Assembly: GCA_963815195.1 (NCBI GenBank)
Contig: CAWFGE010000015.1
Span: 608,001-672,000, forward strand
DNA length: 64,000 nt
Reading direction: 5' to 3'
From: an uncultured Planctomycetaceae bacterium
Lineage (GTDB): Bacteria; Planctomycetota; Planctomycetia; Planctomycetales; Planctomycetaceae
Below, one piece after another: positions 11,789-64,000 of the stretch (its first letter is position 1; every line of letters starts with the position of its first letter). Under the pieces are notes generated by a model. It was given only the letters and a program-made list of their open reading frames with translations, had not been told where the DNA came from and ran no database searches. The position numbers and the translations under genes are program-made.

Positions 11789-13150
11789 ATGACGACCCCC
11801 CTGCCCTTTTTGTTGCTCCCTTTGTGCGCGGCGTTTGCCGACGGCTCCGCGCTCGAACTTCGCTATCGGGGTTCCCTGGAGCACGTCTCCCGCAAAGACG
11901 CCAACGCCGAGGTCAAACAGTTCGATCTCTACTGCCTGATGCAAAACCGGGACGGCGGATCGAAAATCGCGTTTCTCGTGGACGAGCGCGGAGGCGGCGG
12001 TTGGGCCTGGCCCGAACGCTTCGGCGAATTGGTCCTCAACGAAAGACACCAACCGGCCACGGCCGCTCGAATCCGATTGCTCCACGACCACGAAGGCGTG
12101 AACTATCCCCTGCCCCTCCGCCAGCCGATCTTCGAATATCCCGACAAACTCGGCGCCGACGCCACCTGGACCGCCGACAAAAAACGCTACGAAGTCCAAA
12201 GACTCACCAAGCAGAAGGACCGTTCCTGCTGGGAAGTCGATGTGTTCACGAACATCGGCAAGCGGGAAACTCTGTGGATCGAAGAAGACACCGGCCTCGT
12301 CGTCGCGGTGAAAACCAAACTCACGATGGGCCGGGGCGATCCGTTTGAACTGTTGATGGAACTCGATTCGGCGAGCGACGTCGCGGCCGAGAAACTCCCG
12401 GGGATTCAAAAAGCCCTCGCCGGGTTGCTCAAGCTGCAAGCGGATCTCAAACGCCGGGAGAACGCGACCAAACCGGAACTCAGCAAAGAGCAGCTCGCCA
12501 CGACCGCCGAGGCTTTGGAGACGCTCGCCAAGGATGCCGCCGAGACGCCGTTTCGCCAGTTGGTCAGCGTCATCAGCCGCGATCTGAAATTGCAAACCCA
12601 GCGGGACGACGATGTGGACGCCCTCGCCAAACGCATCGTCGGCAAAGACGCCCCGGAGTTTTCCTTCGAAGACTTAAACGGCAAGACGGTCGCCTCCAAG
12701 GATCTCGCCGGGCAGATTGTCGTCCTGCACTTCTGGAAATACCACGACAACCCGCTGACCGAACCCTACGGCCAGGTGGCCTATCTGGATTTTCTCTTTA
12801 ACAAGCGGCAGAAGCTTGGCGTGAGCGTCGTCGGCGTGGCCGTTGATCCCCGCACCGACCAAGCCGGCGAAGTCAGCCAGGCCAAGCGCGACTTCCGCAA
12901 GTTTCGCGACTTCATGAACCTGAGCTACCCCATCACCTTGAACTCCGGCACGCTCCTCAAAACCCTGGGCGACCCCCGCGACGCCCAAGCCCCCCTGCCC
13001 TTGTGGGTCGTCATCGACCACCACGGCAAGGTCGCGCATTACAAGTCCGGCTACTACGAAATCAACCCGGACAAAGGCCTCGAAGAACTCGACGCGGTGC
13101 TCATCCCGCTGATCCGCCAAAGAAGAGCCGAAGCCAGCAAAACAAATTAA
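11789..13150 (+). CDS. Secreted protein with a C-terminal TlpA/redoxin-like domain
   Basis: Signal peptide; GKDAPEFSFEDLNGK...GQIVVLHFW, but no CxxC motif. Confidence 0.75.
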   Translation: MTTPLPFLLLPLCAAFADGSALELRYRGSLEHVSRKDANAEVKQFDLYCLMQNRDGGSKIAFLVDERGGGGWAWPERFGELVLNERHQPATAARIRLLHDHEGVNYPLPLRQPIFEYPDKLGADATWTADKKRYEVQRLTKQKDRSCWEVDVFTNIGKRETLWIEEDTGLVVAVKTKLTMGRGDPFELLMELDSASDVAAEKLPGIQKALAGLLKLQADLKRRENATKPELSKEQLATTAEALETLAKDAAETPFRQLVSVISRDLKLQTQRDDDVDALAKRIVGKDAPEFSFEDLNGKTVASKDLAGQIVVLHFWKYHDNPLTEPYGQVAYLDFLFNKRQKLGVSVVGVAVDPRTDQAGEVSQAKRDFRKFRDFMNLSYPITLNSGTLLKTLGDPRDAQAPLPLWVVIDHHGKVAHYKSGYYEINPDKGLEELDAVLIPLIRQRRAEASKTN

Positions 13151-13159
13151 GGCTGTTTT

Positions 13160-13340
13160 GTGAGCGGCACGGCGCTAGCCGCCGGCAAAGTGAGCGGCAC
13201 GGCGCTAGCCGCCGGCAAAGTGAGCGGCACGGCGCTAGCCGCCGGCAAAGTGAGCGGCACGGCGCTAGCCGCCGGCAAAGTGAGCGGCACGGCGCTAGCC
13301 GCCGGCAAAGTGAGCGGCACGGCGCGTAGCCGCCGGCAGA
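13160..13340. repeat. 30-bp tandem repeat x6 (GTGAGCGGCACGGCGCTAGCCGCCGGCAAA), an amplified REP-like arm
   Basis: Five exact units and one variant; single copies at 25928, 40623 and 48467. Confidence 0.95.
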
Positions 13341-14406: not shown

Positions 14407-15546
14407 TCAGGAAATCTGCTGCATTTCTTGCTTGTGGACCGCGGGGACGATGCGATGGTTTCCGGTCAACCGCCATTCGTCGAGAGTGGGCCGGCAAGCC
14501 AAGGTCACATACACAACCGCCGCCGACACGGGGGGAAACGCATATTCGAGGGGCCAGTGGAAATCCCCATACAACCACTTGAGTCCCGCCCCCAACAGAA
14601 ACAGCGCGAGAACGGGAGCCGCGAACACCACGTCGTAGCGGGGGATGATCCAGTGAAAGGTTCTGATCCGCGCCCACAAACTCAGCGGCGGCGAATAGCC
14701 AAACAGGTATCGTATTAAACGGGCGAAAGGCAACACGAGCATGGCGAGAAACGCGAGCCCCACCGATTCTTCGTAGACATGGGCGAGCACGAACACCCAC
14801 CACCCCACGAGCACCGCCAACGCCGCGGCCCAACCGTAGGAAATACAATGCCGCTCCCGCTTGGGCGCCAGAGAATCATACGGCCAGCCGAGTTTCCAGT
14901 TTTGGCTTTGACTGCGAATGGTGTCCGAAGCTAAAGAAATTCGGTCCGTCAACACGGGCAGACCAGGTTGCTTTAGCCACAGGCTGAGGCCGTGATATGC
15001 AATCCCATAAACCGCAAGAAACAACAGCCCCAAGCCCCACGGGTTTGGCGCCAACAGCACCGCTCCGCCGAGGCCGAACCCGAGCAGCCAGGCGTGCCGG
15101 TCCACTCCCGTGCGGACAAACCCGATCGCCACGCACGCCAAATACATCGCCAAAAACACGCCGGGAACCATCCACCACGCCTCCGGCCAATGCCGGGCCC
15201 CCAAGGCCGTAAGCACGCCGACGACAATCCCATCCTGCGGCACGAGATGGATCGGCCCCACCGGCAAAGGCAGCCCCGGACGCCAGGGCGTTTGATTCAG
15301 CCAGGTCCGGTAGTCCGCCATGAAGGCCGGATGAAACGCAAACGCCCGCATCGCGGCATGACCCGCCGCGGCCAAGCCAAGCAGCGGAATCTGCAGCGGC
15401 TCCCAATTCCCATCGAGCGGAAAGCCGCCCTTCCCGCCCACCACGAGCCAATAAGCCAGTTGGGGAAGATAAGACACGGCATACGCCACCGCAAACCCGA
15501 ACGCCAGCCCGTTAAAAGGCAGCACCACGCGGAACCAGGCTCTCAT
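14407..15546 (-). CDS. Multi-pass membrane protein, probable ABC permease
   Basis: Many hydrophobic segments; start overlaps the stop of the ABC ATPase. Confidence 0.75.
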   Translation of the reverse strand: MRAWFRVVLPFNGLAFGFAVAYAVSYLPQLAYWLVVGGKGGFPLDGNWEPLQIPLLGLAAAGHAAMRAFAFHPAFMADYRTWLNQTPWRPGLPLPVGPIHLVPQDGIVVGVLTALGARHWPEAWWMVPGVFLAMYLACVAIGFVRTGVDRHAWLLGFGLGGAVLLAPNPWGLGLLFLAVYGIAYHGLSLWLKQPGLPVLTDRISLASDTIRSQSQNWKLGWPYDSLAPKRERHCISYGWAAALAVLVGWWVFVLAHVYEESVGLAFLAMLVLPFARLIRYLFGYSPPLSLWARIRTFHWIIPRYDVVFAAPVLALFLLGAGLKWLYGDFHWPLEYAFPPVSAAVVYVTLACRPTLDEWRLTGNHRIVPAVHKQEMQQIS

Positions 15547-16322
15547 CGCTCCTCCCGCGCAAAATAGGCGTCCACATTGATGAGGGTTTCGGGAAAGATC
15601 ACGCGGCCGAGCATCTCGTCCAGGTTCCCCGTGTAGCCCGTCTCCCGGCGAATCTCTTCGAGCGTGCCGTCGATGGCGATGCGGCCCTCGCGAATCACGA
15701 TCAAGCGGTCCGCGATTTCCGCGACGAGTTCGGGCACGGGCGACGTGAGCACGATCGTCACGCCCTGCTCCAGCGACAACCGCCGGAGCACCTGCTTGAG
15801 CGCCATGATCCCGGACGGATCGAGCCCGCCGGAGAACGGCTCATCCAAGAGCAGCACCTCCGCATCCGTGACCAGCGCGGACGAGAGCGCGATCTTTTTC
15901 TGCTGCCCGGCCGAGTAGGTGCGGATCGGCGAATCCGCGAGTTCGGCCAATTGAAACAGATTCAATAGCCGCTGGGCATGGTCGACCAGCCGGTTCTCGT
16001 CGATTTCATAAATCCGGCCGACGGCGAGCAAAAACTCGCGGCCGGTGCGGTTCTTGGGGAGAAAGGCGCGGTCCGGGAGAAACACGACTCGCTTGCGGAG
16101 GGCGAGTTCGTTTTCCACGCTCGACCGCCGGCGGAGGCCCTCGATCTCGACGTAGCCGTGCTGCGGTTCCAACACGCCGCCGAGCACGCTGAGCAGCGTC
16201 GTCTTCCCCATCCCGTTCGGCCCGATCACCACCGACCGGCTCCCCGCCGGGATGTCGAGCGAGATATTCTTCAAGACGGGTTTGACGCCGTAATGCTGGG
16301 TGACATCGACCACGCGAATCAT
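15543..16322 (-). CDS. ABC transporter ATP-binding protein
   Basis: GPNGMGKT, YSAGQQKK, LLLDEP. Confidence 0.92.
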   Translation of the reverse strand: MIRVVDVTQHYGVKPVLKNISLDIPAGSRSVVIGPNGMGKTTLLSVLGGVLEPQHGYVEIEGLRRRSSVENELALRKRVVFLPDRAFLPKNRTGREFLLAVGRIYEIDENRLVDHAQRLLNLFQLAELADSPIRTYSAGQQKKIALSSALVTDAEVLLLDEPFSGGLDPSGIMALKQVLRRLSLEQGVTIVLTSPVPELVAEIADRLIVIREGRIAIDGTLEEIRRETGYTGNLDEMLGRVIFPETLINVDAYFAREER

Positions 16323-16465
16323 CAGGAGACCTTGTCCCGGGGCTTCGATTGTGCGATAGATTGGGAAACGCAGTGCACAAGGAACAGGTTCACCGCAATC
16401 CGCCGGAATTGCAAGACGGAGATTGGTAAAACGCGAGAGAGCAAGAGCAGATAGGGGTAGTCCCT

Positions 16466-16583
16466 GTAGGGCAGGCTCCCGCCTGCCTTTCTTTCGGAGT
16501 AGGTTCCCGGGAACGTGTGCACGGCGAGAATTGGGCATTTCAACAATGACCAACAAAAGAAGGCAGGCGGGAGCCTGCCCTAC
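16466..16583. repeat. GTAG-type REP inverted pair (REPIN-like)
   Basis: GTAGGGCAGGCTCCCGCCTGCCTT ... AAGGCAGGCGGGAGCCTGCCCTAC, perfect inverted arms. Confidence 0.85.
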
Positions 16584-16605
16584 TCGGTTCTAAGGAGCAA
16601 TCGCC

Positions 16606-16977
16606 GTGATTAGCGATACCGACATGTGTCAACGACTCAACCTTGTGCGGACATTCGGATCGTTCGTTCTGCAAGAAGTGGGTGGGGAAGGTGACGCGAA
16701 TGTCATTTCCGTAAAGGCTGTCCCGAAAGCCACTGGCGTATACTGGATTGGAGGGACGACCGTTGCCAAATCCGGTGTGGAAATAGACTCTGTCTTTCGA
16801 GTCGATACCAATACCGGAGGCACCCTACTATCGGTCTTCTGGTGGATCAGTGGGAAATGGTATAAACATGAAGATGATGATGCGTTAGTCGCGTTAGGGC
16901 TATTAAAGGAAGAAGCATTTCCGTTCGACTGGCGATTCACCACGCCATTGGAAGAGGATATTTTTCACCCCACGTAG
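16606..16977 (+). CDS. Hypothetical protein (possible immunity-type cassette gene)
   Basis: AAGGAG RBS, 123 aa, lower GC; the stop codon abuts the 87-bp repeat. Confidence 0.6.
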   Translation: MISDTDMCQRLNLVRTFGSFVLQEVGGEGDANVISVKAVPKATGVYWIGGTTVAKSGVEIDSVFRVDTNTGGTLLSVFWWISGKWYKHEDDDALVALGLLKEEAFPFDWRFTTPLEEDIFHPT

Positions 16978-17063
16978 GCGGCGGGGTGGCACTGTTAGTT
17001 CTGTTAATTCGGGGTTGTTAACAGTCTTTCGGGTGCCACTGGCAACTTGTTGCCAGTGCTTTC
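16977..17063 (+). repeat. 87-bp composite repeat, copy 1
   Basis: Matches 17581..17667 with one mismatch; contains the palindrome GGGTGCCACTGGCAACTTGTTGCCAGTG, whose inverted partner lies at 17115-17143. Confidence 0.9.
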
Positions 17064-17172
17064 CAGCAGCATGGAATTGGAACGTTTCAAAACTCGATTG
17101 GATTATCCGATTCACACTGGCAGGCAAGCTGCCAGTGGCACCCGGCGTTTCTGACCTTCCACCTGCATTGCA

Positions 17173-17541
17173 ATGAGGTTTACTAGAATGACAGAGTTAT
17201 ACTTCGAAGAAGACGGCGTGGTTTCTTTATGGGTTGGCCAAAAGCGAGTTGCGACCGGATCAAATTTCCTTCGAGATAAATATGGGATCGAATATTATGA
17301 TCCAGATAACCAAGAGTGTGTTATAGAGGAATCGGTCACTCCCCTTTTTGACCTCCTATCGCAATTGTCGTACTCGGAGTCTTTTCGGGACGACGCATTT
17401 GAAGCTGCAAAGCATCTCGGCATCACGTCGGCACTATGGATAATGGCGCAATACGATTACGCCTATGATCCTGTTGCTGCCGGTTTGACTGCAATGCCTG
17501 ATGAACCTGTATTCATAGGTAGATTTGGCTGGCATGAATAG
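17173..17541 (+). CDS. Imm22 (DUF4284)-like immunity protein
   Basis: VVSLWVG, YGIEYYDPD..E, LL..LSYS.SF, YDYAYD and FIG pattern; acidic; start may be 17188. Confidence 0.6.
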   Translation: MRFTRMTELYFEEDGVVSLWVGQKRVATGSNFLRDKYGIEYYDPDNQECVIEESVTPLFDLLSQLSYSESFRDDAFEAAKHLGITSALWIMAQYDYAYDPVAAGLTAMPDEPVFIGRFGWHE

Positions 17542-17580
17542 CACGATCCCGCCGGCAATCGCATTTCGGAGGAAGCCGAT

Positions 17581-17667
17581 GGCGGCGGGGTGGCACTGTT
17601 AATTCTGTTAATTCGGGGTTGTTAACAGTCTTTCGGGTGCCACTGGCAACTTGTTGCCAGTGCTTTC
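17581..17667 (+). repeat. 87-bp composite repeat, copy 2
   Basis: Direct repeat of 16977..17063. Confidence 0.9.
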
Positions 17668-17688
17668 TAAGACGATCTTCCGAACGAC

Positions 17689-18105
17689 ATGAATCCCTCA
17701 ATCCGAAGAACGGACCCCAGAATGGCAGACCGTCGAAAAACCGTGAAACACTACCATGAGCCGGGGGATTGTCACGAGCTGACGTTTTCCTGTTATCGCC
17801 GAATGCCGTTGTTGACCAATGATCCTTGGCGAAAGCTGTTGGCCAGGCAGATTGACACCGCCAACGAACGCCATGCGTTCCGTTTGGTCGCTTTTGTATT
17901 CATGCCGGAGCATCTGCATCTTTTGGTTTATCCCGTGGGAGAGTCGGAGGTCAGCGATTTGCTCAAGGCCATCAAGAAACCGTTTTCGTTCCGGATCAAA
18001 GGGCTTCTCAAAGAACAAAACAGTCCGTTGCTGAACCGCCTTACGATTCGAGAACGCCCCGGCAAGATGTCTTTCCGATACTGGCAAGAAGGAGGAGTGA
18101 CGTAG
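17689..18105 (+). mobile_element. REP-associated tyrosine (Y1/HUH, RAYT-like) transposase, 3'-truncated
   Basis: HELTFSCYRR, FVFMPEHLHLL (HUH) and YWQEGG; the stop is supplied by the GTAG of a REP, and the catalytic-Tyr (YI..NP) segment is absent. Confidence 0.85.
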
Positions 18106-18234
18106 GGCCGGCTGTGCCGGCCTTTTCGACGAAGGGAATCGTACTTATGCCCAATTGGCGGCTGGGTATGCCGGCCATTTGGTGCGAGAAAAATCGTTGT
18201 GTCAAAAACAAAAGGCCGGCACAGCCGGCCCTAC
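18102..18234. repeat. GTAG-type REP inverted pair
   Basis: GTAGGGCCGGCTGTGCCGGCCTTTT ... AAAAGGCCGGCACAGCCGGCCCTAC. Confidence 0.85.
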
Positions 18235-18271
18235 TCGGCTCATGCAAAGCCATGAGCATGCCACCCCGCCG

Positions 18272-18337
18272 AGTCAAAAGTGCCGTTGCCGTCGTCATCC
18301 ACGTATTTGGCGATCCGGCGGCCGAAGGCGTCGTAGA
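18272..18337 (-). pseudogene. RHS/YD-repeat gene fragment
   Basis: Reads FYDAFGRRIAKYVDDDGNGTFD (YDxxGRR motif). Confidence 0.6.
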
Positions 18338-18372
18338 ACATGCTCATGCAAAGCCATGAGCATGCCACCCCG

Positions 18373-18635
18373 CCGTGCTGCGGTTCCAAGACGCCCCCCA
18401 GCACGCTCAACAGCGTCGTCTTCCCCATGCCGTTGGGCCCAATGACCACCGACCGGCTCCCCGCGGGGATGTCGAGCGAGATATTCTTCAACACGGGTTT
18501 CACGCCGTAATGCTGGGTGACATCGACCACGCGAATCATCGAGGAGACCTTGTGGAGGGGGGCTGCCATCGTGCGAGAGATTGCCGAACGCAGTGCACAA
18601 GGAACAGGTTCACCGCAATCCGGCGGAATTGCAAG
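18373..18635 (-). pseudogene. Second copy of the ABC ATPase 5' end plus its upstream region
   Basis: Encodes the same 56 aa as 16156-16322; truncated by a repeat. Confidence 0.9.
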
Positions 18636-18887
18636 TCATGGATTTCTCAATCCGCCCAATGTACGATACCAATCGCCCCCCTGCCCCATTGCCGGCGAGG
18701 CCCAACCTGTTATTGCCGCGGCGGGGTGACATGCTCATGGCTTTGCATGAGCATGTCTTCTGCAGGTTCGATGAGTCCGCGAGGTGACTTTGCCATTGGA
18801 TTGAGGGGCCGTGTCTTTGATGCCGAGAAATCAGGGCTTCGTCAAAACTCATGCTCATGCAAAGCCATGAGCATGCCACCCCGCCGT

Positions 18888-19913
18888 TCACCCATTCAGC
18901 CAGAGGATGAGACTTAGGAGCGCTAACAAGATAACCCAAACGAGGATCGCCCGCCAAGTGGCCTTTTTGGCCCGTTCTGCTTCCCACCAGCTTCGAGGCC
19001 GAACTCCTTGTGCAAGAAATGTGGCGACACCGGCCAGATTGATACAGATAAGATTCGCCCCGGACAAAAGAAACGCCCCGAAAGCGAGTGTGAAGTCACC
19101 TTCCCCAACCAACATTCCGCAAACGACGAGTGGAGGTACCAGCGCCACAGCCACCATGACACCGATCACGGCCCCCGACAGTCCTTGGGTGAATGCCAAC
19201 GTTCCGGCGCAGCCGGCCGCTAAAGCCAATAAGATATCGCCTAGCCCAACCTCAGTCCGTGATGCGATGGCGGGAACAGCGGCATCGACCTGGAGCGGAA
19301 CGCCAATAACGACAGCACACGCAAAGGCCACAAGAACTCCGATGATGTTCGTTAACAACGCTCGGCGAAGAAGATCAAAATCCCCCAGCGTCGTCGCAAG
19401 CGACATGGCAACATTCGGGCCCAAGAGAGGAGCGATCACCATCGCTCCAATAATTACAGCGACATCGTCTCGCAATAGCCCCACCGCCGCGACGACGGCC
19501 GAGAGGATGGTCATCCCCAAGAAGACACGGGAAACGCCGAGTCCCTCACTGACCTCGGCGTAGAGTTCCTCGCGGCTAATCCGTTGCTGTGCCGTCTTCT
19601 GTTCCTCTTCTGAGGTGGATTTCGGCTCCGTGCTTTCCTTTTCCTCCGGCGCGACCCGAGGCAGAACCGCTTCGACCGGAAGCAAAATGACATGGAAGCC
19701 TTTGGTGTGGGCGTATTGTTGCTCAAACCGATCCATGATCAGCTCGGTTTCCTCGGCAGGAACTAATAAATGCAACACAATCTGGTTGGCATCGGTGTCT
19801 CGCCAGCGGCCAAGTATCTCATGCCCTTCGAGCAATTCCTTGAGTTGATCCTCGCTGCTCAGCGGAACGAAGATTTGCATGATACGAAGGTTCATCGTTC
19901 GTTCAAGTTCCAA
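18888..19913 (-). CDS. TIGR00341/DUF389 family membrane protein
   Basis: ISREELY, VIIGAMVIAPLLGP, GVMVAVALVPP, NLICINLAG; start may be 19895. Confidence 0.9.
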   Translation of the reverse strand: MELERTMNLRIMQIFVPLSSEDQLKELLEGHEILGRWRDTDANQIVLHLLVPAEETELIMDRFEQQYAHTKGFHVILLPVEAVLPRVAPEEKESTEPKSTSEEEQKTAQQRISREELYAEVSEGLGVSRVFLGMTILSAVVAAVGLLRDDVAVIIGAMVIAPLLGPNVAMSLATTLGDFDLLRRALLTNIIGVLVAFACAVVIGVPLQVDAAVPAIASRTEVGLGDILLALAAGCAGTLAFTQGLSGAVIGVMVAVALVPPLVVCGMLVGEGDFTLAFGAFLLSGANLICINLAGVATFLAQGVRPRSWWEAERAKKATWRAILVWVILLALLSLILWLNG

Positions 19914-19974
19914 ATATCAGGGATTGGAATCGGACAGTTTGTTCAACAAACGTGTGGGGTGTTCTTTCTCCCAT

Positions 19975-20376
19975 TTAATCGAGTATCCCGTCCCAAAAGA
20001 AGAGTTGCCCGTCGACCGCTTTCACGGCTTTGACCTCCCCATCCTGAGACACGATCAAGCCAATGGCTTGCTCGCATTTGTGGCAGACGGAAAAAACCGA
20101 CTGGTGCCGCAGTCCCCACTGGTCACACAAGTACTCGGTCCCGGTCAGGGCATCCACTACAGCGGTTTCCGGCGGAAGGAGAAGGGGGAATCGCACGCCA
20201 AATCCTTGAAGTCGGAGGTGGCCATCGAGAAGAACGGCTCCATCAACGGCCGCCAGCAAGCTGATCTGACTGATGCCTCGAATCAGTTGTCGGCTCATGC
20301 GGTGCATCGAAAGTTCCGCCTGGCAGCGTGCCAATTCGGCCGTAGGATCTGATGAGGACTGCGGCGCACGCAGCAA
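19975..20376 (-). pseudogene. DisA_N/diadenylate-cyclase-like C-terminal fragment
   Basis: LAAVDGAVLL, GLRHQS and IVSQDG motifs; no convincing start, and the 5' side abuts a REP pair. Confidence 0.6.
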
Positions 20377-20388
20377 ATCATCCAGTAA

Positions 20389-20452
20389 GTAGGGTGGGCA
20401 CCGCCCACCAATGGTTTCCTGATTCCATGTTGGTGGGCGATGCCCATCCTAC
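20389..20452. repeat. GTAG-type REP inverted pair
   Basis: GTAGGGTGGGCACCGCCCACC ... GGTGGGCGATGCCCATCCTAC; related pair at ~57941-57996. Confidence 0.75.
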
Positions 20453-20479
20453 TTTCTACGGGGGACGCGAGACTGGATT

Positions 20480-21852
20480 CTAACCGAATAGCGCCGCGAT
20501 CGGGCGGCCTTCGCAGAATTTGAGGGGGCGGCCCAGGGGGTCGCGGAGCGTTTGGTCGGGGGCGATGCCCAGGGCCTCGTAGACGGTGGCGGCGTAATCG
20601 AGCGGGGAGACGGGGCGTTCTTCCGGGTAGCCGCCCTGCGAATCGCTGGCTCCGTAAACCGCCCCGCCCCGAATCCCGCCGCCGGCGAAGAGACCGGAAT
20701 AGCAGAACGGCCAATGCTCGCGCCCGGCGTTGCCTTGGGTGATATTCGGGCTTGCGGCCGAACTCGCCGACCCAGGCGACGAGGGTTTCGTCCAAGAGGC
20801 CGCGCTCGGAGAGATCGTCCAAGAGCGCGACGAGCGCGGTTTCCGCCGGCGGCAAGAGGTCGTTCTTGAGGCGATGGAAATTGTTGCTGTGCGTGTCCCA
20901 GAACGCGTGGCCGTCGTTGTGCCAGTTGACCGAAACCAACGGCACGCCGCGCTCGACAAGCCGGCGGGCGAGGAGCACGCTTTGCCCGTGGATATTCCGC
21001 CCGTAGCGGTCGCGGAGCGTGTCCGCTTCTTGGGAAAGATCAAACGCCTCGCGGGCGGCTTTCGCGGTCAATAGGCCGAAGGCTTGCTGTTGATAGCCGG
21101 TCCAGGACGCGTTCTCGGCCCGTTTCGCCAATCGGCCGCGGGCCTCGTCGAGCGAGGTCAGGAGTTCCTGCCGGCGGACGAGACGCTGCGCGGTGAGGCC
21201 GTCCTGCAGAGACGAGTTCCGGGACGTTCCAGCCGGGGGCGTTGGGGTCGCCGGTGACGAGAAACGGGTCGTACTTCTTCCCCAGCCAACCGCCGTGCTG
21301 TCCGGGAGCCCGGCCGCCGGGTGCTGCGGGGTGAAAGACTTTCCAGGGGACCATCACCGCCGCGGGCAGTTCGCCGGTACTGGGCCGAAGCTTCGCCAGC
21401 ACGGCCCCCATGTGCGGCGTATCTTTTTCGCTCGGCGGATCCTGATCGCTTTTGACGACCGGAGCCCAATGCCCCGTCACGGTCGCATGCCCGCTGGAAA
21501 GATGGGCGGCATCATCGTGCGAGAGCGAACGAATCACCGCGACCCGGTCCATCCGCCGGGCGATCTGCGGCAAATGTTCGCAAACGATGGTGCCGGGGAC
21601 GTTGGTGGCGATGGGATGGAACTCACCGCGAACTTCCGCGGGGGCATCGGGCTTGGGGTCCAGACGTATCCAGATGACTGGGACCGCCCCAGAGGAAAAT
21701 AAAGATGCAAGCCTTCGCCCTGCCCTCTTTCGGTGGCTTCGTCTTGGCGGCGAAGAGATCCGGAACGTGAGACCCAACGTGCCGAGCGTGCCGACTTCCA
21801 GCAACCGCCGGCGGTTTAGGACATGCATCGGCTGGTGATCGCGAGAATTCAT
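20480..21852 (-). CDS. DUF1501 domain protein (several frameshifts)
   Basis: FLWGGPSHLD, DPKPDAPAEVRGEF, LLARRLVERGV, WDTH, GEFGR and GREHW spread over three frames. Confidence 0.85.
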
Positions 21853-21895
21853 GGCTCGACTTCGACCGCAAGCGGTCGGCTTGGGTGGTTCTTGT

Positions 21896-23257: not shown

Positions 23258-23344
23258 CAGAAAGCCCTTTCACACACGAAATCACCGAACCCATCAAGGT
23301 TCACGCATTTGTATAAGTGTAGAAAGGAGGTTGCGAAGTGTAAA

Positions 23345-23454
23345 GGCGAGCGGACCAACCTGCGGTCGGTGCCCGCGTGAGCCCCATGATCGTACGAAAA
23401 AAGCGAGTGTGATGGTTGCTGAAAAAATCATGGGGCTCGCGCCCCACGCTCGCC
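23345..23454. repeat. GGCGAGCG-type REP pair
   Basis: GGCGAGCGGACCAACC...GCCCC / GGGGCTCGCGCCCCACGCTCGCC; relatives at ~8900, 35279-35320, 54812-54890 and 62858. Confidence 0.7.
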
Positions 23455-41988: not shown

Positions 41989-43343
41989 CAGGTGAGGAGT
42001 TCCGTAATCAATTCGCCGTCGCGGTTGATGCGAATCGGCCGGCCGTCGGGCGTGTGAAATTCGCGTTCGGGATCGATGCCCAGCAAATGATAGATCGTAT
42101 GGGCGAGGTCGGCGGGCGTCACCGGCCGGTTTTTGGGGCTTTCGCCGGTTTTGTCACTGGCCCCGATGACTTGCCCGCCCCGCACGCCGCCGCCCGCCAA
42201 CAGCACGCTGAATACCCGCGGCCAGTGGTCGCGGCCCGCGGACGTGTTGAGCTTGGGCGTCCGGCCGAATTCGCCCATCACCAACACCAGCGTACTCTGG
42301 AGCAGTTCTCTCGCTTTGAGGTCCTCCAAGAGCGCGGCGAGCGCGGTATCGAGAGAAGGAATCAAACCCACCGGAACCTTCGCGCCGGTGAAGCCGTCTT
42401 TCAAGCGGGTCACGAGATCCTGGTGCGTGTCCCAGCCGCGGTTGTTGACGGTGACGAACGGCACGCCGCGTTCGATCAGCCGGCGGGCCAACAGGCAGCT
42501 TTGGCCGATGGTTTTCCGCCCGTAGCGATCGCGGACGGCCGGCGGCTCTTCCTTCAAATCGAACGCCCGCTTCGCGTCCGGGGAATTGACGAGCCGAAAC
42601 GCCTGCTCAAACTCGGACGATTCGGGCGGCGATTTCGTTTCGTTGAGGCTGCGGTTCCAACGGTCGAGTTCCGAGACGAACTCTTGCCGGCGGCGGATTC
42701 GCGCGGCGGAAAGACCCGGAGCGAACTCCAGATCGCGGACTTCAAAATCCGCCCGTGCGGGATCGCCGCCGATGGAAAACGGAGCCGCGGTTGCGGGAAG
42801 AAATCCCTGCCCGCTCAGCCGGCCGCCGCCCACGCGAAAATCGGGCATGGCAATGAAGTGTGGCAGCACGGGCTTTTGCGTTTGCAGATGGCTGAGCACC
42901 GCGCCGTAGGTCGGGTATTCGATCACCGGCGTGGGGCGATAGCCGGTAAGCATGTACTGGGTGCCGAAGTTGTGTTCGCCGAGCGGGGACGTGACCGACC
43001 GCACAATCGCCAGGTCGTTCATGCGGGCGGCGGTTTGGGGCAGAAGCTCGCATACCGCGACGCCGGGCACGGCGGAAGAAATCGTCCCGAACGGGCCGCG
43101 GACTTCGCGGGGGGCGTCGGGTTTGGGATCGAACGTCTCCAGATGGCTTGGCCCGCCGTCGAGCCAAATCAAAATGCAAGACCGCAGCGTTCGGGCGGGC
43201 GAATTCCCCTCGGCCCCTTTGAGAGACTGATGGCGAAACCAACCCGGGAGCGACAATCCCAAGGTTGTCAGACTCCCGACGGTCAACACATCCCGCCGGG
43301 TGGCCAGGCGGCCGCGTTCAAAAGAATTCAGAGGGTTTAACAT
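41988..43343 (-). CDS. DUF1501 domain protein
   Basis: WLDGGPSHLETFDPKP, LLARRLIERGV, GEFGRTP, GRDHW. Confidence 0.92.
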   Translation of the reverse strand: MLNPLNSFERGRLATRRDVLTVGSLTTLGLSLPGWFRHQSLKGAEGNSPARTLRSCILIWLDGGPSHLETFDPKPDAPREVRGPFGTISSAVPGVAVCELLPQTAARMNDLAIVRSVTSPLGEHNFGTQYMLTGYRPTPVIEYPTYGAVLSHLQTQKPVLPHFIAMPDFRVGGGRLSGQGFLPATAAPFSIGGDPARADFEVRDLEFAPGLSAARIRRRQEFVSELDRWNRSLNETKSPPESSEFEQAFRLVNSPDAKRAFDLKEEPPAVRDRYGRKTIGQSCLLARRLIERGVPFVTVNNRGWDTHQDLVTRLKDGFTGAKVPVGLIPSLDTALAALLEDLKARELLQSTLVLVMGEFGRTPKLNTSAGRDHWPRVFSVLLAGGGVRGGQVIGASDKTGESPKNRPVTPADLAHTIYHLLGIDPEREFHTPDGRPIRINRDGELITELLT

Positions 43344-43387: not shown

Positions 43388-45532
43388 TCAATGATTCGTC
43401 GTGAATTCTTTCGAGGTCAACAGGCCCCACAGGAAATCTTCCATCACCGCCTCGCGCGATTCGTGTTCGGGAACCGCGGCGAACTGTTTGAGCCAAAACC
43501 TTTTTTCCTTCGGAGCCGGCACGCGGGCGAAAGCGCGGAGATAGAACTCGTTCAAGATGTCTTCATCGCCGGCGCCGGACTTTATGAGCAAATGCAAGCG
43601 GCCGTTTTGGGCGGCGAGTTTCTTGTTGAGGATGCCGCCGTTTAAGACGTGCAGCTTGGCGGCGAGGCTGGCGGTGTCGCCGGCGTTTGTCGAGGTTTCG
43701 CAATCTCCGCCGCGCTCGCAGCGGCCGAGCACGTCGAGGGCGCGGGATTCGATGTGCGGCGACACCAACGCGATGGCCCGCGTGCCGGGGGCGGTCTCGG
43801 GATAAGTTTCGGGACGGCCGGTCACGTCGGACCAGGCATCGACCAGAACCTCGGCCGCAAGCTTTCGCGGGGCTTGATGCGAATAGAACCGCTCATCCTG
43901 TCGATTGATTCCTGAAGGCTGAGAGCTGCGCTGGTAAGTTCGGCTGAGAGCGATCCGCCGCAGCGTGTGCCGGAGGTCGAACCCGTGGTCTGCAAAATCC
44001 GCGGCGAGGCGGTCGAGCAACTCGGGATGCGTGCTGGGGTTGGTCTGGCTGAGATCATCCGTCGGATCGACCAGGCCCCGGCCGAACATGGCCTGCCACA
44101 ACCGATTGACCAGCGCCCGGCTGAAATACGGATTGCCGGCGTCCGTCAACCACTTGGCCACGGGTTCGCGCAAATCTTCCTCGGCGGCCAGATCGCGGAC
44201 GCCGGGGATTCGCGGGACCGCCGGGTCGCCGGTTTTGGGATGAATCACATTCCCGAAGGCTTTCTGGCGAATCACCCGCCCGCGGTCCACCCGCGCGAAC
44301 ACCGCCGCGAAGCCGTGGTAGTCGTCCTGGGTCCAACGGTCCAAAGGGTGGTTGTGACAATTCGCGCAGCGGAGCCTCACGCCCAAAAACGCCTGGCTGA
44401 CGTACTCCGCCTGTCCCCGCGCATCGCCCGCCACGAGATAAAAATTCGCCGGCCCATATTCCAGCGGATCGCCATTCGCGGTGAGAAGCTCGCGGGCCAT
44501 TTCGTTCAACGGCCTTCGCGCCGCAATCTGGTCCCGCAGCCAGGCATGAAACACCTTGGCGTGTTCGAGTCCGCCCTTCGGCCCGCCCACCCGCAACAGC
44601 TCCGCCAGCCGAAACGTCCAATACTCGTTAAACGCCTCGGAATTGAGCAATTCCTCCACCAGTGCGCCACGCAGCCTTTCCGATTGTTCGGGCGATTGCC
44701 GCTCGGCTTTGAGGAACCGCGTCACCGTCTTCGGATCGGGAAGCCGGCCCGTGAGATCCAAGGTCACCCGCCGGATAAACGTGGCGGTATCCGCCGGCGG
44801 CGAGACCGGCAGGCGAAGATCGCCGAGCCGCTCGAGCACCGCTTCATCGATAAAGTTCTCGCGCGGCTCCCCGGGGAATTCCACCGGTTCATCGCCATAC
44901 GGGACGAGAACCTCAACGGGGACCACGCGGCTCAAGAAGCGGGCGATGATGATGTGCTGTCCCGGGCGCTGAATCGTGGCGGCATGGGTCACGGGATCGA
45001 TGGCGACCGCCGAGGGATCGGCGGGTTTCCACACAGTCCAGCGGGTGACATCCAGGAGGTTCTCGTTATCAAAGGCCGCTTGAGCGCGGAGCGGAATCGA
45101 TTCGCCGGCTTCGACGACCTGCGTTTCGGGGGTGACGACAAGCTCCCGCAGCTTGCGAGGATCGCCGCGCAGCGCACCGGCGGCGATCCAGTTTCGCAAC
45201 CGCTCGGCTCCCTCGGAATCGGCCGGCAGCGGGATGCCGCCTTCGTGGCCGGTTTCGCCCGTCGGTTTGCGGAGGATCAAACTTTGTTCGGGATGGGCGA
45301 GATTCACCCGCCGGCCTTCGAACTCGTGGACGATCGCTGCATAATCCGCCGACGGATCGCTGCCCCACAGCGACAAATGGAATCCCCCGCGCCCGGCCGC
45401 GGCTCCGTGGCAGGAACCGGCATTGCAGCCGGCTTTCGTCAACGCCGGCAGCACTTCCGTGTCAAAATGGGGCGCACCGGCCGGCGGAGAAGCCAAGGCC
45501 GAAATGGCAATCAGCGAGAAAGAAATCGACAT
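43388..45532 (-). CDS. DUF1549/DUF1553 domain protein
   Basis: GCNAGSCHG, NFIDE, FIRRVTLDLTGRLP, CANCHNHP, VNRLW..MFGRGLVDP, HPELLD. Confidence 0.92.
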   Translation of the reverse strand: MSISFSLIAISALASPPAGAPHFDTEVLPALTKAGCNAGSCHGAAAGRGGFHLSLWGSDPSADYAAIVHEFEGRRVNLAHPEQSLILRKPTGETGHEGGIPLPADSEGAERLRNWIAAGALRGDPRKLRELVVTPETQVVEAGESIPLRAQAAFDNENLLDVTRWTVWKPADPSAVAIDPVTHAATIQRPGQHIIIARFLSRVVPVEVLVPYGDEPVEFPGEPRENFIDEAVLERLGDLRLPVSPPADTATFIRRVTLDLTGRLPDPKTVTRFLKAERQSPEQSERLRGALVEELLNSEAFNEYWTFRLAELLRVGGPKGGLEHAKVFHAWLRDQIAARRPLNEMARELLTANGDPLEYGPANFYLVAGDARGQAEYVSQAFLGVRLRCANCHNHPLDRWTQDDYHGFAAVFARVDRGRVIRQKAFGNVIHPKTGDPAVPRIPGVRDLAAEEDLREPVAKWLTDAGNPYFSRALVNRLWQAMFGRGLVDPTDDLSQTNPSTHPELLDRLAADFADHGFDLRHTLRRIALSRTYQRSSQPSGINRQDERFYSHQAPRKLAAEVLVDAWSDVTGRPETYPETAPGTRAIALVSPHIESRALDVLGRCERGGDCETSTNAGDTASLAAKLHVLNGGILNKKLAAQNGRLHLLIKSGAGDEDILNEFYLRAFARVPAPKEKRFWLKQFAAVPEHESREAVMEDFLWGLLTSKEFTTNH

Positions 45533-63073: not shown

Positions 63074-64000
63074 TCACCGCGAAGCCTGGCGGCTGAGGAC
63101 TTCCAGGCCTTTGAGGATGTCTTGATCCTGGGCCAGTTCCTGGTCGGTGCTTCCGCCGTAATAGGCGACGTGTTCGCCCGCGGGCCGTTCGACCACGACG
63201 TGCGGCCGCACGCCGACTTTGCCGTAGGTGTTGCCGTTCGGCGAATAGAATTTCGCGGTCGTCAGCCGCAAGCCGGTGGAGCCTTGCACGGGGAAGATGC
63301 TTTGCACCGACCATTTGCCGTAGGTCTGCCGGCCGACGATTGTGCCGCGGTGATGATCGAGAATGGCCCCGGCCACGATTTCGCTGGCACTGGCGCTGTC
63401 GCCGTCCACCAACAACACGAGCGGGATCGGAGTCGTGCCTTGCGGGCGGGCGGAGTAGCTCCAGTTCTGATCGGCGACCCGGCCTTTGGTGGAAACCAGA
63501 ACGCCGCCCGACAAAAACCGGTCCAGGACTTCGACCGCCGCGGTCAGAAGCCCGCCGGGATTGCCGCGCAGGTCCCAGATCAGGGATTTCATGCCTTGGC
63601 GTTTGAGGCTCGCGAGGGCGGCGTCCATCTCGGCCGCGGTGGTCTTTTGAAAGCCGGTCATTTGGATGTAGCCCACGCCGGTGCTTTCGTCGATGATCTT
63701 CGCCACGGGAATGCTTTTGACCTGCACGGCCCGGCGGGCGAAGCGTCCGGTGCGGGTTGGGTAACTTCCGAGGCTTTGAATCTCGATTTCCACCTGGCTT
63801 CCGGACGGCCCCCGCAATAAGCGGGCGGCTTCGTCGGTCGTCATATTCCGGCAGTCCTGCCCCTCGATGGCGACGATGTAATCGCCCCGCCGCAGCCCGC
63901 CTTCTTGCGCGGGGCTTTCGGGAAGCACATTCATCAACCGCATTCCGCGGCCGGCTTCGCCCTTCATTTCGATGCCCAGGCCCACGAACTCGCCTTCGAT
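63074..64000 (-). CDS. S41 family carboxyl-terminal protease with PDZ domain (5' end outside the window)
   Basis: VGLGIE PDZ motif, DLRGNPGG, SASASEI, TYGK. Confidence 0.92.
   Translation of the reverse strand: MEGEFVGLGIEMKGEAGRGMRLMNVLPESPAQEGGLRRGDYIVAIEGQDCRNMTTDEAARLLRGPSGSQVEIEIQSLGSYPTRTGRFARRAVQVKSIPVAKIIDESTGVGYIQMTGFQKTTAAEMDAALASLKRQGMKSLIWDLRGNPGGLLTAAVEVLDRFLSGGVLVSTKGRVADQNWSYSARPQGTTPIPLVLLVDGDSASASEIVAGAILDHHRGTIVGRQTYGKWSVQSIFPVQGSTGLRLTTAKFYSPNGNTYGKVGVRPHVVVERPAGEHVAYYGGSTDQELAQDQDILKGLEVLSRQASR

Follow-up and report, generated by a model that had tools for sequence, protein, structure and literature searches.

An uncultured Planctomycetaceae bacterium from soil carries, between an ABC-transporter ATPase gene and a DUF1501 gene, a strain-specific islet of about 3.9 kb in which small genes and gene scraps alternate with repetitive extragenic palindromic (REP) repeats. 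The islet lies in a stretch of 64,000 nucleotides (the window; assembly GCA_963815195.1, contig CAWFGE010000015.1, positions 608,001 to 672,000, here C15:608001-672000), and it includes a second, orphan copy of the start of the ABC gene that meets the outer edge of a REP. We put at about one half the probability that this site is a recombination hot spot with REP ends as join points, and that the orphan start reflects diverged alleles or islets joined in series. The locus points to a known kind of repeat-assisted recombination instead of a new gene-capture machine.

The genome (G000; 8.87 Mb in 25 contigs, designated by C-numbers; G+C near 0.60; 94.6% complete with 2.8% contamination) was compared with three relatives (G001-G003) and with three runs (X1-X3), of which X1 is from soil. 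From left to right the pieces of the islet and its flanks are the ABC gene, a G1 REP doublet, ORF1 (an open reading frame, ORF, of 123 aa), a B doublet that contains the first copy of an 87-nt repeat, an Imm22-type ORF, the second 87-nt repeat and a remnant of a REP-associated tyrosine transposase (RAYT) gene. These are followed by a G2 doublet, a D REP, a 66-nt scrap, another D REP, the orphan ABC start, a D doublet, a TIGR00341/DUF389 gene, a 133-aa ORF, a G3 doublet and the DUF1501 gene. Our reading of the sequence, the ORF list and a repeat search place every piece named in a preliminary description of this DNA where that description had it, and in the same order, except that its "RHS fragment" could not be verified as such (see below).

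The orphan ABC gene start

The first 56 codons of the ABC gene occur twice, together with about 100 nt upstream of them, and blastn finds only these two copies in the genome. Copy A, delimited by repeat search and alignment (16155..16424, minus strand), is the start of the live gene, which is complete (15543..16322, minus strand; 259 aa from the ATG at 16322; PF00005, E 7.9e-27) and has an ortholog with 79% amino-acid identity in G002 (tblastx). Copy B, the orphan (18372..18644, minus strand), consists of codons 1-56 and the upstream region, and its segment 18372-18540 matches positions 1-43 of PF00005 with E 2.6e-10. The duplicated segment, with its 56 codons and upstream region, is larger than the preliminary description had it.

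Overall, the two copies (16155-16424 and 18372-18644) are 90% identical. Their coding parts differ at 12 nucleotides in 11 of the 56 codons, and all 12 differences are synonymous, leaving two identical 56-aa peptides. With 42.7 synonymous sites among 168, the chance of such a silent-only outcome is 7e-8 if all changes are taken as neutral and 3e-4 if half of them are. An orphan made in place would have drifted; since 12 of 12 differences are silent, the orphan was recently part of a functional gene. It belonged to a working gene for nearly all of the time since its split from copy A. The silent-only divergence points to recombination between diverged alleles, and gives no evidence of cut-and-paste fragment capture.

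At its inner end copy B abuts the outer (head) edge of a D-type REP (18339..18376, minus strand), with 4 nt (CGGC) common to both. The sequence beyond this REP is unrelated to the ABC gene, which rules out the insertion of a D REP into a dead ABC copy. At the opposite end, what follows copy B (18645 onward) is unrelated to what follows copy A (16425 onward).

The regions of about 100 nt upstream of the two starts are 81% alike. Upstream of both lies a block of 49 nt (16352-16400 and 18572-18620) that shows a single difference within diverged surroundings; selection may be keeping it as a promoter or leader element. Behind this conserved block, the orphan start continues in frame on the minus strand through the D REP and the YD-like scrap next to it, as a predicted ORF of 109 aa (18240-18569).

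REP edges at duplication boundaries

A genome-wide search that tolerated 3-4 mismatches found 42 copies of the D repeat, 81 of B, 52 of G1 and 52 of G2, that is 227 copies in 81 clusters, of which the cluster in the window (10 copies) is the second largest; G3 is a fifth family additional to the four counted. As DNA, D, B, G1 and G2 all form hairpins that leave a 5' head unpaired (z -3.2 to -4.7; -3.2 to -8.8 across all REPs and doublets tested). GTAG is the head of G1 and G2, CGGGTGC that of B and ACGGCGGGGTGG that of D, and the 87-nt repeat indeed shares with D the head GCGGCGGGGTG(G/A)CA (repeat family D7) that had been described for them. Four inverted doublets emerged from the repeat search (I1, I4, I5 and I8). 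Loci of different families lie close together: a second family occurs within 2.5 kb at 74 of 144 REP loci, where 300 random simulations gave 8.4 such loci on average and never more than 20. The outer edge of D is sharp: 39 of 42 copies have a C at position -1, and beyond it the sequence is random. A search of the palindromes against Rfam gave three microRNA-precursor matches at 25-29 bits, where the gathering scores are 150-268, and we set these sub-threshold matches aside as chance.

The boundaries of duplications fall at REP ends far more often than expected. As a set we took low-copy local direct duplications of 55-900 nt, 0.3-7 kb apart, with at most three copies and at most 35% REP content; 61 were kept, and 5 of the 66 pairs at this copy number were dropped for their REP content. 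Eight of the 61 duplications have a boundary within 5 nt of a REP end, where a uniform null expects 0.14. When the REPs around the 15 pairs with a REP nearby were shuffled locally, the mean was 1.13 and the maximum 5, and none of 2000 shuffles reached 8. The association of REP ends with truncation and duplication junctions, anticipated in the preliminary description, is thus present across the genome.

We sought further scars by comparing first the REP clusters and then the entire genome with themselves, and found a recurrent architecture in which a complete gene end is followed by cargo, the edge of a D REP and an orphan copy of the same gene end (on C4 and C6). On C4, the tail of a ribA-like gene together with a G2 REP is duplicated over 202 nt with 98% identity (69108-69309 and 73008-73209), the second copy lying 3.9 kb away directly after a D doublet. 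On C6, a DUF1501 gene has its final 229 nt repeated with 99% identity (145393-145621 and 146963-147191), 1.6 kb away and directly before a D doublet; this cluster is missing from the syntenic site of G001, which measures about 420 bp as against 4.8 kb. On C23, a 455-nt segment that carries the tail of a 613-aa ORF is duplicated with 100% identity (42687-43141 and 43948-44402), with a D doublet inside the end of the duplicate. Each of these three duplicates has a boundary at a D doublet edge, and 0.8-3.7 kb of cargo lies between the copies. Joints at D edges overlap by CG, CG and CGGC, the last being that of the orphan ABC start. Elsewhere on C15, a 64-nt direct repeat (97%) surrounds a B doublet, a 303-aa ORF and a second B doublet (388053-389433), an arrangement that resembles a long target duplication round a composite element, and at 547184-547516 the YD repeats of a 5'-truncated RHS gene fragment (in a 1078-aa frame) start at the head of a D doublet (547348), the other side of which is unrelated. 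A duplicate on C21 (249958-250567 and 253619-254227) was rejected as a gene-end case, being a second, broken copy of an insertion sequence (IS) transposase truncated at a D REP.

We propose that hairpins of five REP families, many of them as REP doublets (REPINs), and a decayed RAYT unit have piled up at a variable site between the ABC and DUF1501 genes. The REPINs could be spread in trans by the intact RAYTs encoded on C11 and C12, and the REP ends would act as points of breakage and joining. DNA from a relative diverged by about 10% would be added in series. This would take a homologous crossover, located within the ABC gene or beyond it, and a second joint where a D-type REP has its outer edge; the small immunity-type genes of low G+C would be passengers of such exchanges. 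Three routes to the second joint can be imagined. Homology could have come from identical dispersed copies on which RecA acted, or been portable, from a D REPIN that had landed in the recipient's ABC gene; alternatively, REP-terminated DNA, its end provoked by a hairpin or made by a RAYT, could have been joined at 2-4 nt of microhomology; or a RAYT could have nicked the DNA. If this reading holds, the locus would be a clean, countable example from the Planctomycetota of hairpin repeats serving as join points by which accessory DNA is added beside core genes, a process that has been proposed, and not proven, for the repeat arrays of Neisseria. The same genome offers parallel cases in its gene-end duplicates at D edges, its REP doublets that carry a transposase start codon and its RAYT copies broken in complementary ways. 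Taken as it stands, the locus is an ordinary repeat-rich recombination hot spot.

A plainer account would have ordinary recombination and decay produce the scars and the REPINs gather later, as bystanders without a part in the joints, in dispensable DNA. REPs are normally intergenic, and nested or mixed repeat clusters are known, including the mosaic regions of Neisseria, from parts of the account by Di Nocera et al. (2013; PMC3733652). IS fragments and decayed genes are also present in the clusters of this genome, and RAYT copies broken in complementary ways would fit as well. Later insertion, however, does not explain why homology stops 0-5 nt from a REP edge at eight duplications when local shuffling gives a mean of 1.13, nor why the sequence across the REP is unrelated to the gene, and we regard this account as rather unlikely.

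REP doublets, RAYT genes and comparable systems

The G1 doublet (16466..16583; inverted repeat I4) has arms of 29 nt (16466-16494 and 16555-16583) that are 93% complementary and fold at -41.5 kcal/mol (z -8.8), and its spacer (16495-16554) retains the start and the first 12 codons of a RAYT gene (MPNSRRAHVPGN). The G2 doublet (18102..18234; inverted repeat I5) has 25-nt arms with 100% complementarity (18102-18126 and 18210-18234) and copies of 99% identity on C13, at C15:248k and at C15:548k; its spacer (18127-18209) retains the ribosome-binding region and first codons, MPNWR, of the RAYT gene on C12. Because the spacers keep the RAYT start region, both doublets are internal-deletion miniatures of a RAYT unit, that of G2 deriving from the G2-flanked unit at C12:908693-909337.

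The other repeats in the islet belong to the B, D and G3 families. The B-type doublet (16977..17150; families D3 and I8) comprises the first 87-nt repeat (16977-17063), a spacer and an inverted B arm (17125-17144), and the 87-nt repeat is a long form of the B-type REP, the first copy and the inverted arm forming a complete doublet. The second long B REP (17581..17667, plus strand) is 99% identical to the first and lies just 5' of the RAYT remnant. Against the G2 doublet stands a D REP (18235..18272, minus strand) whose palindrome end is cut short (an 89% copy in family D2, with 3 mismatches). Further on, an inverted D, a spacer and a D (18719..18886, arms 18719-18756 and 18850-18886; I1) make up a single repeated REPIN unit of about 170 nt, with four further copies of 93-97% identity on C6 and C23. 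At the far edge of the islet, the G3 doublet with its GTAG heads (20391..20452) folds at -23 kcal/mol (z -6.7) and has copies in G001-G003.

The RAYT gene of the islet is a pseudogene (17689..18105, plus strand). It matches PF01797 with E 4e-7 over profile positions 10-85 of 121 and scores 60.8 bits, under the cut-off of 80, against the NCBIfam model REP_Tyr_transpos (NF047646) over positions 3-89 of 146. Its HUH motif PEHLHLL is present and aligns with PEHMHCI of the E. coli TnpA_REP structure 4er8, the best PDB match (E 0.0033). The frame ends ...YWQEGG|VT* where the G2 doublet starts, without the tyrosine motif: in alignment the catalytic motif YIHxNPV reads YIHANPV in the C13 paralogue and YIHENPV in that of C11, and the remnant stops before it. 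A long B REP lies 22 nt upstream of the remnant and the G2 doublet stands at its 3' break, both belonging to families dispersed in the genome. Lacking the tyrosine region, this RAYT is dead and cannot be the local enzyme; any RAYT activity at the locus would need to be supplied in trans.

Candidates for such supply exist. Nine matches to the Y1 transposase family occur in the genome, and among the RAYT paralogues, which the preliminary description had marked as worth finding, are full-length copies on C11 (44433-45062, 99.5 bits to NF047646) and on C12 (908727-909341, 163.8 bits). The latter is bracketed by G2 repeats, in plus orientation at 908693-908713 and in minus orientation at 909317-909337, and on the parts of the description by Quentin et al. 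(2018; PMC6006769) that define it, this unit is a classical REPtron. Three further loci on C13 hold incomplete copies. At 936589-937197 lies a RAYT copy, 99% identical, that has the tyrosine motif and no N-terminus and is the complement of the window remnant; at 939123-939500 a 120-nt RAYT start (about the first 40 codons) stands between two inverted 87-nt REPs, in the same order of REP and RAYT start as in the window; and a copy at 63157-63690, bracketed by D REPs, looks 5'-truncated.

In several respects these repeats resemble published REP/REPIN-RAYT systems and REPtrons, as far as passages of Bertels and Rainey (2011; PMC3116915), Di Nocera et al. (2013; PMC3733652) and Quentin et al. (2018; PMC6006769) describe them. 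They are short hairpins whose 5' head (GTAG in G1, G2 and G3) stays unpaired, they occur mostly as inverted doublets in tens of copies and several families per genome, a full-length RAYT is bracketed by its own REP (C12 with G2), and HUH and Y motifs occur in the intact paralogues. Unlike those systems, D and B here have a GGGTG(G/C)CA head in place of GTAG, the locus has only a truncated piece of a RAYT, whose broken counterpart on C13 complements it, the spacers of G1 and G2 retain the region of the RAYT start codon, and REP edges coincide with gene-end duplicates.

The closest published analogue is the Neisseria model of intergenic mosaic elements (NIMEs) and minimal mobile elements. Minimal mobile elements were reportedly put forward by Saunders and Snyder in 2002. 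Parts of Bentley et al. (2007; PMC1797815) offer the hypothesis that foreign DNA enters by a crossover at a small repeat combined with a RecA crossover in the neighbouring gene, and that the array of dRS3 repeats and NIMEs grows in this way; they also speak of minimal mobile elements, for which syntenic sites hold alternative content. As in the NIME arrays of dRS3 and RS units, so far as these parts describe them, small inverted-repeat arrays at our locus separate unrelated pieces between conserved genes, and the content of the site differs by strain. The differences from that description are the phylum, the unrelated repeats, spacers that are whole genes and gene scraps rather than RS units of 50-150 bp, and a candidate enzyme that would be an HUH RAYT and not a Piv- or transposase-type recombinase.

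Additive or homology-facilitated illegitimate recombination leaves behind displaced, or orphan, gene ends, for instance in the arrays of Rhs and contact-dependent inhibition (CDI) genes and in islands inserted in gene ends. The term occurs in PMC6382021 and PMC8116780. The islet resembles these cases in that a second copy of a flanking gene end with silent differences only marks a two-allele joint with 2-4 nt of microhomology. It departs from them in that the displaced piece is a 5' end with its promoter region instead of a 3' end, and in that the joint is the exact edge of a REP, at several loci.

Integrons combine a tyrosine recombinase of the IntI type, an attI site and a promoter with cassettes bounded by one family of attC sites. 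The islet shares with them small, low-G+C ORFs, mostly on the same strand, between structured repeats that fold as single strands. Of the ORFs in 14407-20376 that were scanned with Pfam, none matched an integrase or recombinase family, and the ORF list shows no other long ORF in that interval. In contrast to integrons, there are five unrelated-looking repeat families and no single attC-like site, there is no common promoter, the pieces lie on both strands, and no cassette occurs at a second place. IS91 and ISCR elements are HUH rolling-circle elements with Y2 enzymes and ori and ter ends that capture neighbouring DNA by one-ended read-through. The HUH enzyme family and the attachment of flanking host DNA to an element end recall them; unlike them, the islet contains no such element and no evidence of rolling-circle copies.

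The preliminary description had proposed REP-guided cutting and joining around a RAYT as a way of capturing genes. On this reading, which we consider distinctly unlikely, an HUH enzyme supplied in trans would cleave single strands at the edges of REPs and join REP-bounded blocks to new sites, at times extending into an adjacent gene, and so assemble a cassette array. In its most explicit form, no more likely in our view, REPIN-RAYT systems would actively build islets by cutting at the outer edge of D, ligating at CG or CGGC in neighbouring genes and adding blocks in series, each with a spare working gene end. If true, it would amount to an HUH-driven route of gene capture, free of a recombinase gene and biased to small immunity genes. 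REPIN-RAYT systems are usually regarded as domesticated and immobile.

Several observations speak for capture. The D edge is sharp and the joints overlap by CG or CGGC, REP edges stand at 8 of the 61 duplication boundaries, the block missing from one X1 contig (see below) is bounded by GTAG REPs with its joint beside GTAG motifs, and intact RAYTs exist on C11 and C12. TnpA_REP is reported, in parts of PMC6006769, to cleave and rejoin REPs; REPtrons are described there as not moving as units, which counts the other way. Also against capture are the loss of the tyrosine region from the local RAYT, the lack of any cargo piece at a second locus between the same REPs, the bounding of pieces by five different REP families and the heterogeneous cargo of other clusters, 7 of 20 of which contain IS transposases. 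Capture alone does not account for the purely silent divergence of the ABC copies, for which two functional alleles are required. Of the integron-like, RAYT-driven array, the enrichment at junctions and the variable content stand, whereas the enzyme, the mobility of cassettes and the single type of site do not.

Relatives, soil metagenomes and islet contents

The content of the interval varies among relatives, a comparison that the preliminary description had suggested. G002, a member of the same genus, has DUF1501 about 80 bp beyond the ABC gene, with neither DUF389 nor the islet. In G001, the closest relative, the ABC gene is missing from the site, and the membrane gene of the ABC neighbourhood is cut in half, its 5' part being lost precisely at a GTAG doublet that belongs to a further family and abuts DUF1501 (C38:52988-53414 of that genome); its DUF389 gene, 93-94% identical, lies on another contig beside a different RAYT-like gene. 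G003 has DUF389 and the 133-aa ORF linked, in another context. We tried synteny as a test of a fixed ancestral site and found it weak, the DUF389 locus of G001 being itself a mosaic of G000 regions.

Runs X1-X3 were available as low-depth Logan contigs, none of which spans the islet, and the parts that they leave uncovered are uninformative. X1 holds contigs without a difference to 16372-16502, 16572-16722 and 16703-16916, as well as contigs about 10% diverged, these at 15337-15729 only. One X1 contig of 208 nt (depth 2.49) lacks the block 16503..20383: it joins 16372-16502 (131 nt, 0 differences) to 20384-20414 (the loose end reads as 20386-20415) and then to 20453 onward, skipping 3883 nt. 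Presence/absence polymorphism of the islet in the soil sample is likely on this sequence evidence. Other joints among the contigs (17064/18240 on opposite strands, 18124/18214 and 18124/20389) lie within REP arms with 21-35 nt a side and were taken as other copies of the repeats.

Several points weigh against a hot spot at which diverged alleles or islets were joined at REP ends. The B allele was not found as a whole donor gene in G001-G003, and two exact-pattern scans of metagenome contigs, with a 27-nt block common to both upstream copies and with a degenerate ABC-start pattern, gave no match. No contig of X1 or X2 bridges the joint between the D REP and the orphan start (D/ABC'), so that this joint has no support beyond the assembly. 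The short X1 form keeps the copy-A upstream region, which places the orphan inside the variable block; either half could then be the resident or the incoming one, and the short form could be ancestral or a deletion. The "variable site" is drawn from few, imperfect genomes, the relatives being 85-94% complete, and gene order in the genus is poorly conserved, so that the comparisons with relatives are suggestive only. The other duplicates at REP edges are 98-100% identical and fit events within a clone as well as exchange between strains. Finally, the observed evidence does not point to one enzyme as the maker of the joint.

An assembly artefact, in which two co-occurring strains were joined falsely at a REP, has in our judgement a slim chance. 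In its favour are the state of the genome (94.6% complete, 2.8% contamination, 25 contigs), the presence in X1 of identical and about 10%-diverged pieces as well as a shorter form of the locus, and the lack of a contig that bridges the D/ABC' joint. On the other side, the locus lies on a 795-kb contig, X1 contigs match three islet parts exactly (those listed above), and the architecture recurs at other loci; moreover, even a false join presupposes that the ABC gene of the other strain contained a D REP. An in-place duplication of the ABC start, as a long target or tandem duplication with decay of one copy, is scarcely credible: direct repeats around a 1.9-kb insert and the near-identical duplicates on C4, C6 and C23 would suit it, yet neutral drift is expected and 0 of 12 differences change the protein, the sequences after copies A and B are unrelated, and there is no third copy in the genome for gene conversion.

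The passengers of the islet are small. ORF1 (16606..16977, plus strand, 123 aa, G+C 0.497) encodes a small conserved protein of no named family, without a Pfam or NCBIfam match. Its relatives are 121-126 aa long and fall into 14 other clusters at 50-79% identity; it is present in 4 of 300 other genomes of the class, and in one of these four relatives' loci it lies near a PT-HINT (pretoxin-HINT) ORF. A scan of genome contigs for ORF1 returned only one 33%-identical stretch, in a metagenome-assembled genome of the Actinomycetota. ORF1 is likely to be an immunity-type accessory gene. Downstream, an immunity-type ORF of 122 aa (17173..17541, plus strand, G+C 0.453) belongs to the Imm22 family (DUF4284; PF14112, E 1.2e-8, 36.2 bits against a cut-off of 27, positions 30-118 of 121). 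The genome has two Imm22-type genes, the other likewise beside B REPs. No toxin domain that could be cognate to the Imm22 ORF was found in the Pfam-scanned ORFs of the interval, and upstream of it lie only ORF1 and REPs. The low G+C ascribed to the ORFs of the islet is borne out (0.45-0.52, against 0.60 for the genome).

The 66-nt scrap between the D REPs (18273..18338, minus strand) occurs once in the genome and reads FYDAFGRRIAKYVDDDGNGTFD over its 22 codons. It had been described as an RHS fragment, which the searches do not bear out: it is YD-repeat-like by eye only, a 27-aa read matches no Pfam family at E<=0.001, and tblastn at E<0.7 returns the scrap itself and no relative in an RHS gene. 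ORF1, the Imm22 ORF, this scrap and the segment 18645-18718 each have one blastn match in the genome and hence no second locus between the same REPs, and the two ORFs and the scrap have no DNA match in G001-G003.

The array had been described as biased toward polymorphic-toxin material. We surveyed 248 ORFs from 20 other REP clusters, picked greedily by length, longest first, and so not gene predictions. Pieces of immunity or toxin type occur in 5 of the 20 (SUKH-1 twice, Imm22, an AHH scrap, an EndoU scrap and a truncated RHS, three of these matches being below Pfam cut-offs), and IS transposases in 7 of the 20; what remains of the bias is a modest lean.

At the right side of the islet, the TIGR00341/DUF389 membrane-protein gene (18888..19913, minus strand) matches PF04087 with E 3e-37 and TIGR00341 with 194 bits, over its cut-off. 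The 133-aa ORF beyond it (19975..20376, minus strand), of no named family and without a match in Pfam or NCBIfam, has 76% amino-acid identity (tblastx) to the ORF that adjoins DUF389 in G003. The DUF1501 gene beside the islet is spread over at least three overlapping minus-strand ORFs (20295-21131, 21040-21852 and 21623-21871) and looks frameshifted. The gene content of the window includes DUF1501 and PSD1/PSCyt, which marks the DNA as planctomycete. Elsewhere in the window, tandem units of about 30 nt at 13150-13330, translated as ERHGASRRQS repeats, and a 48-nt repeat element at 23342-23390 both have many copies in G001-G003.

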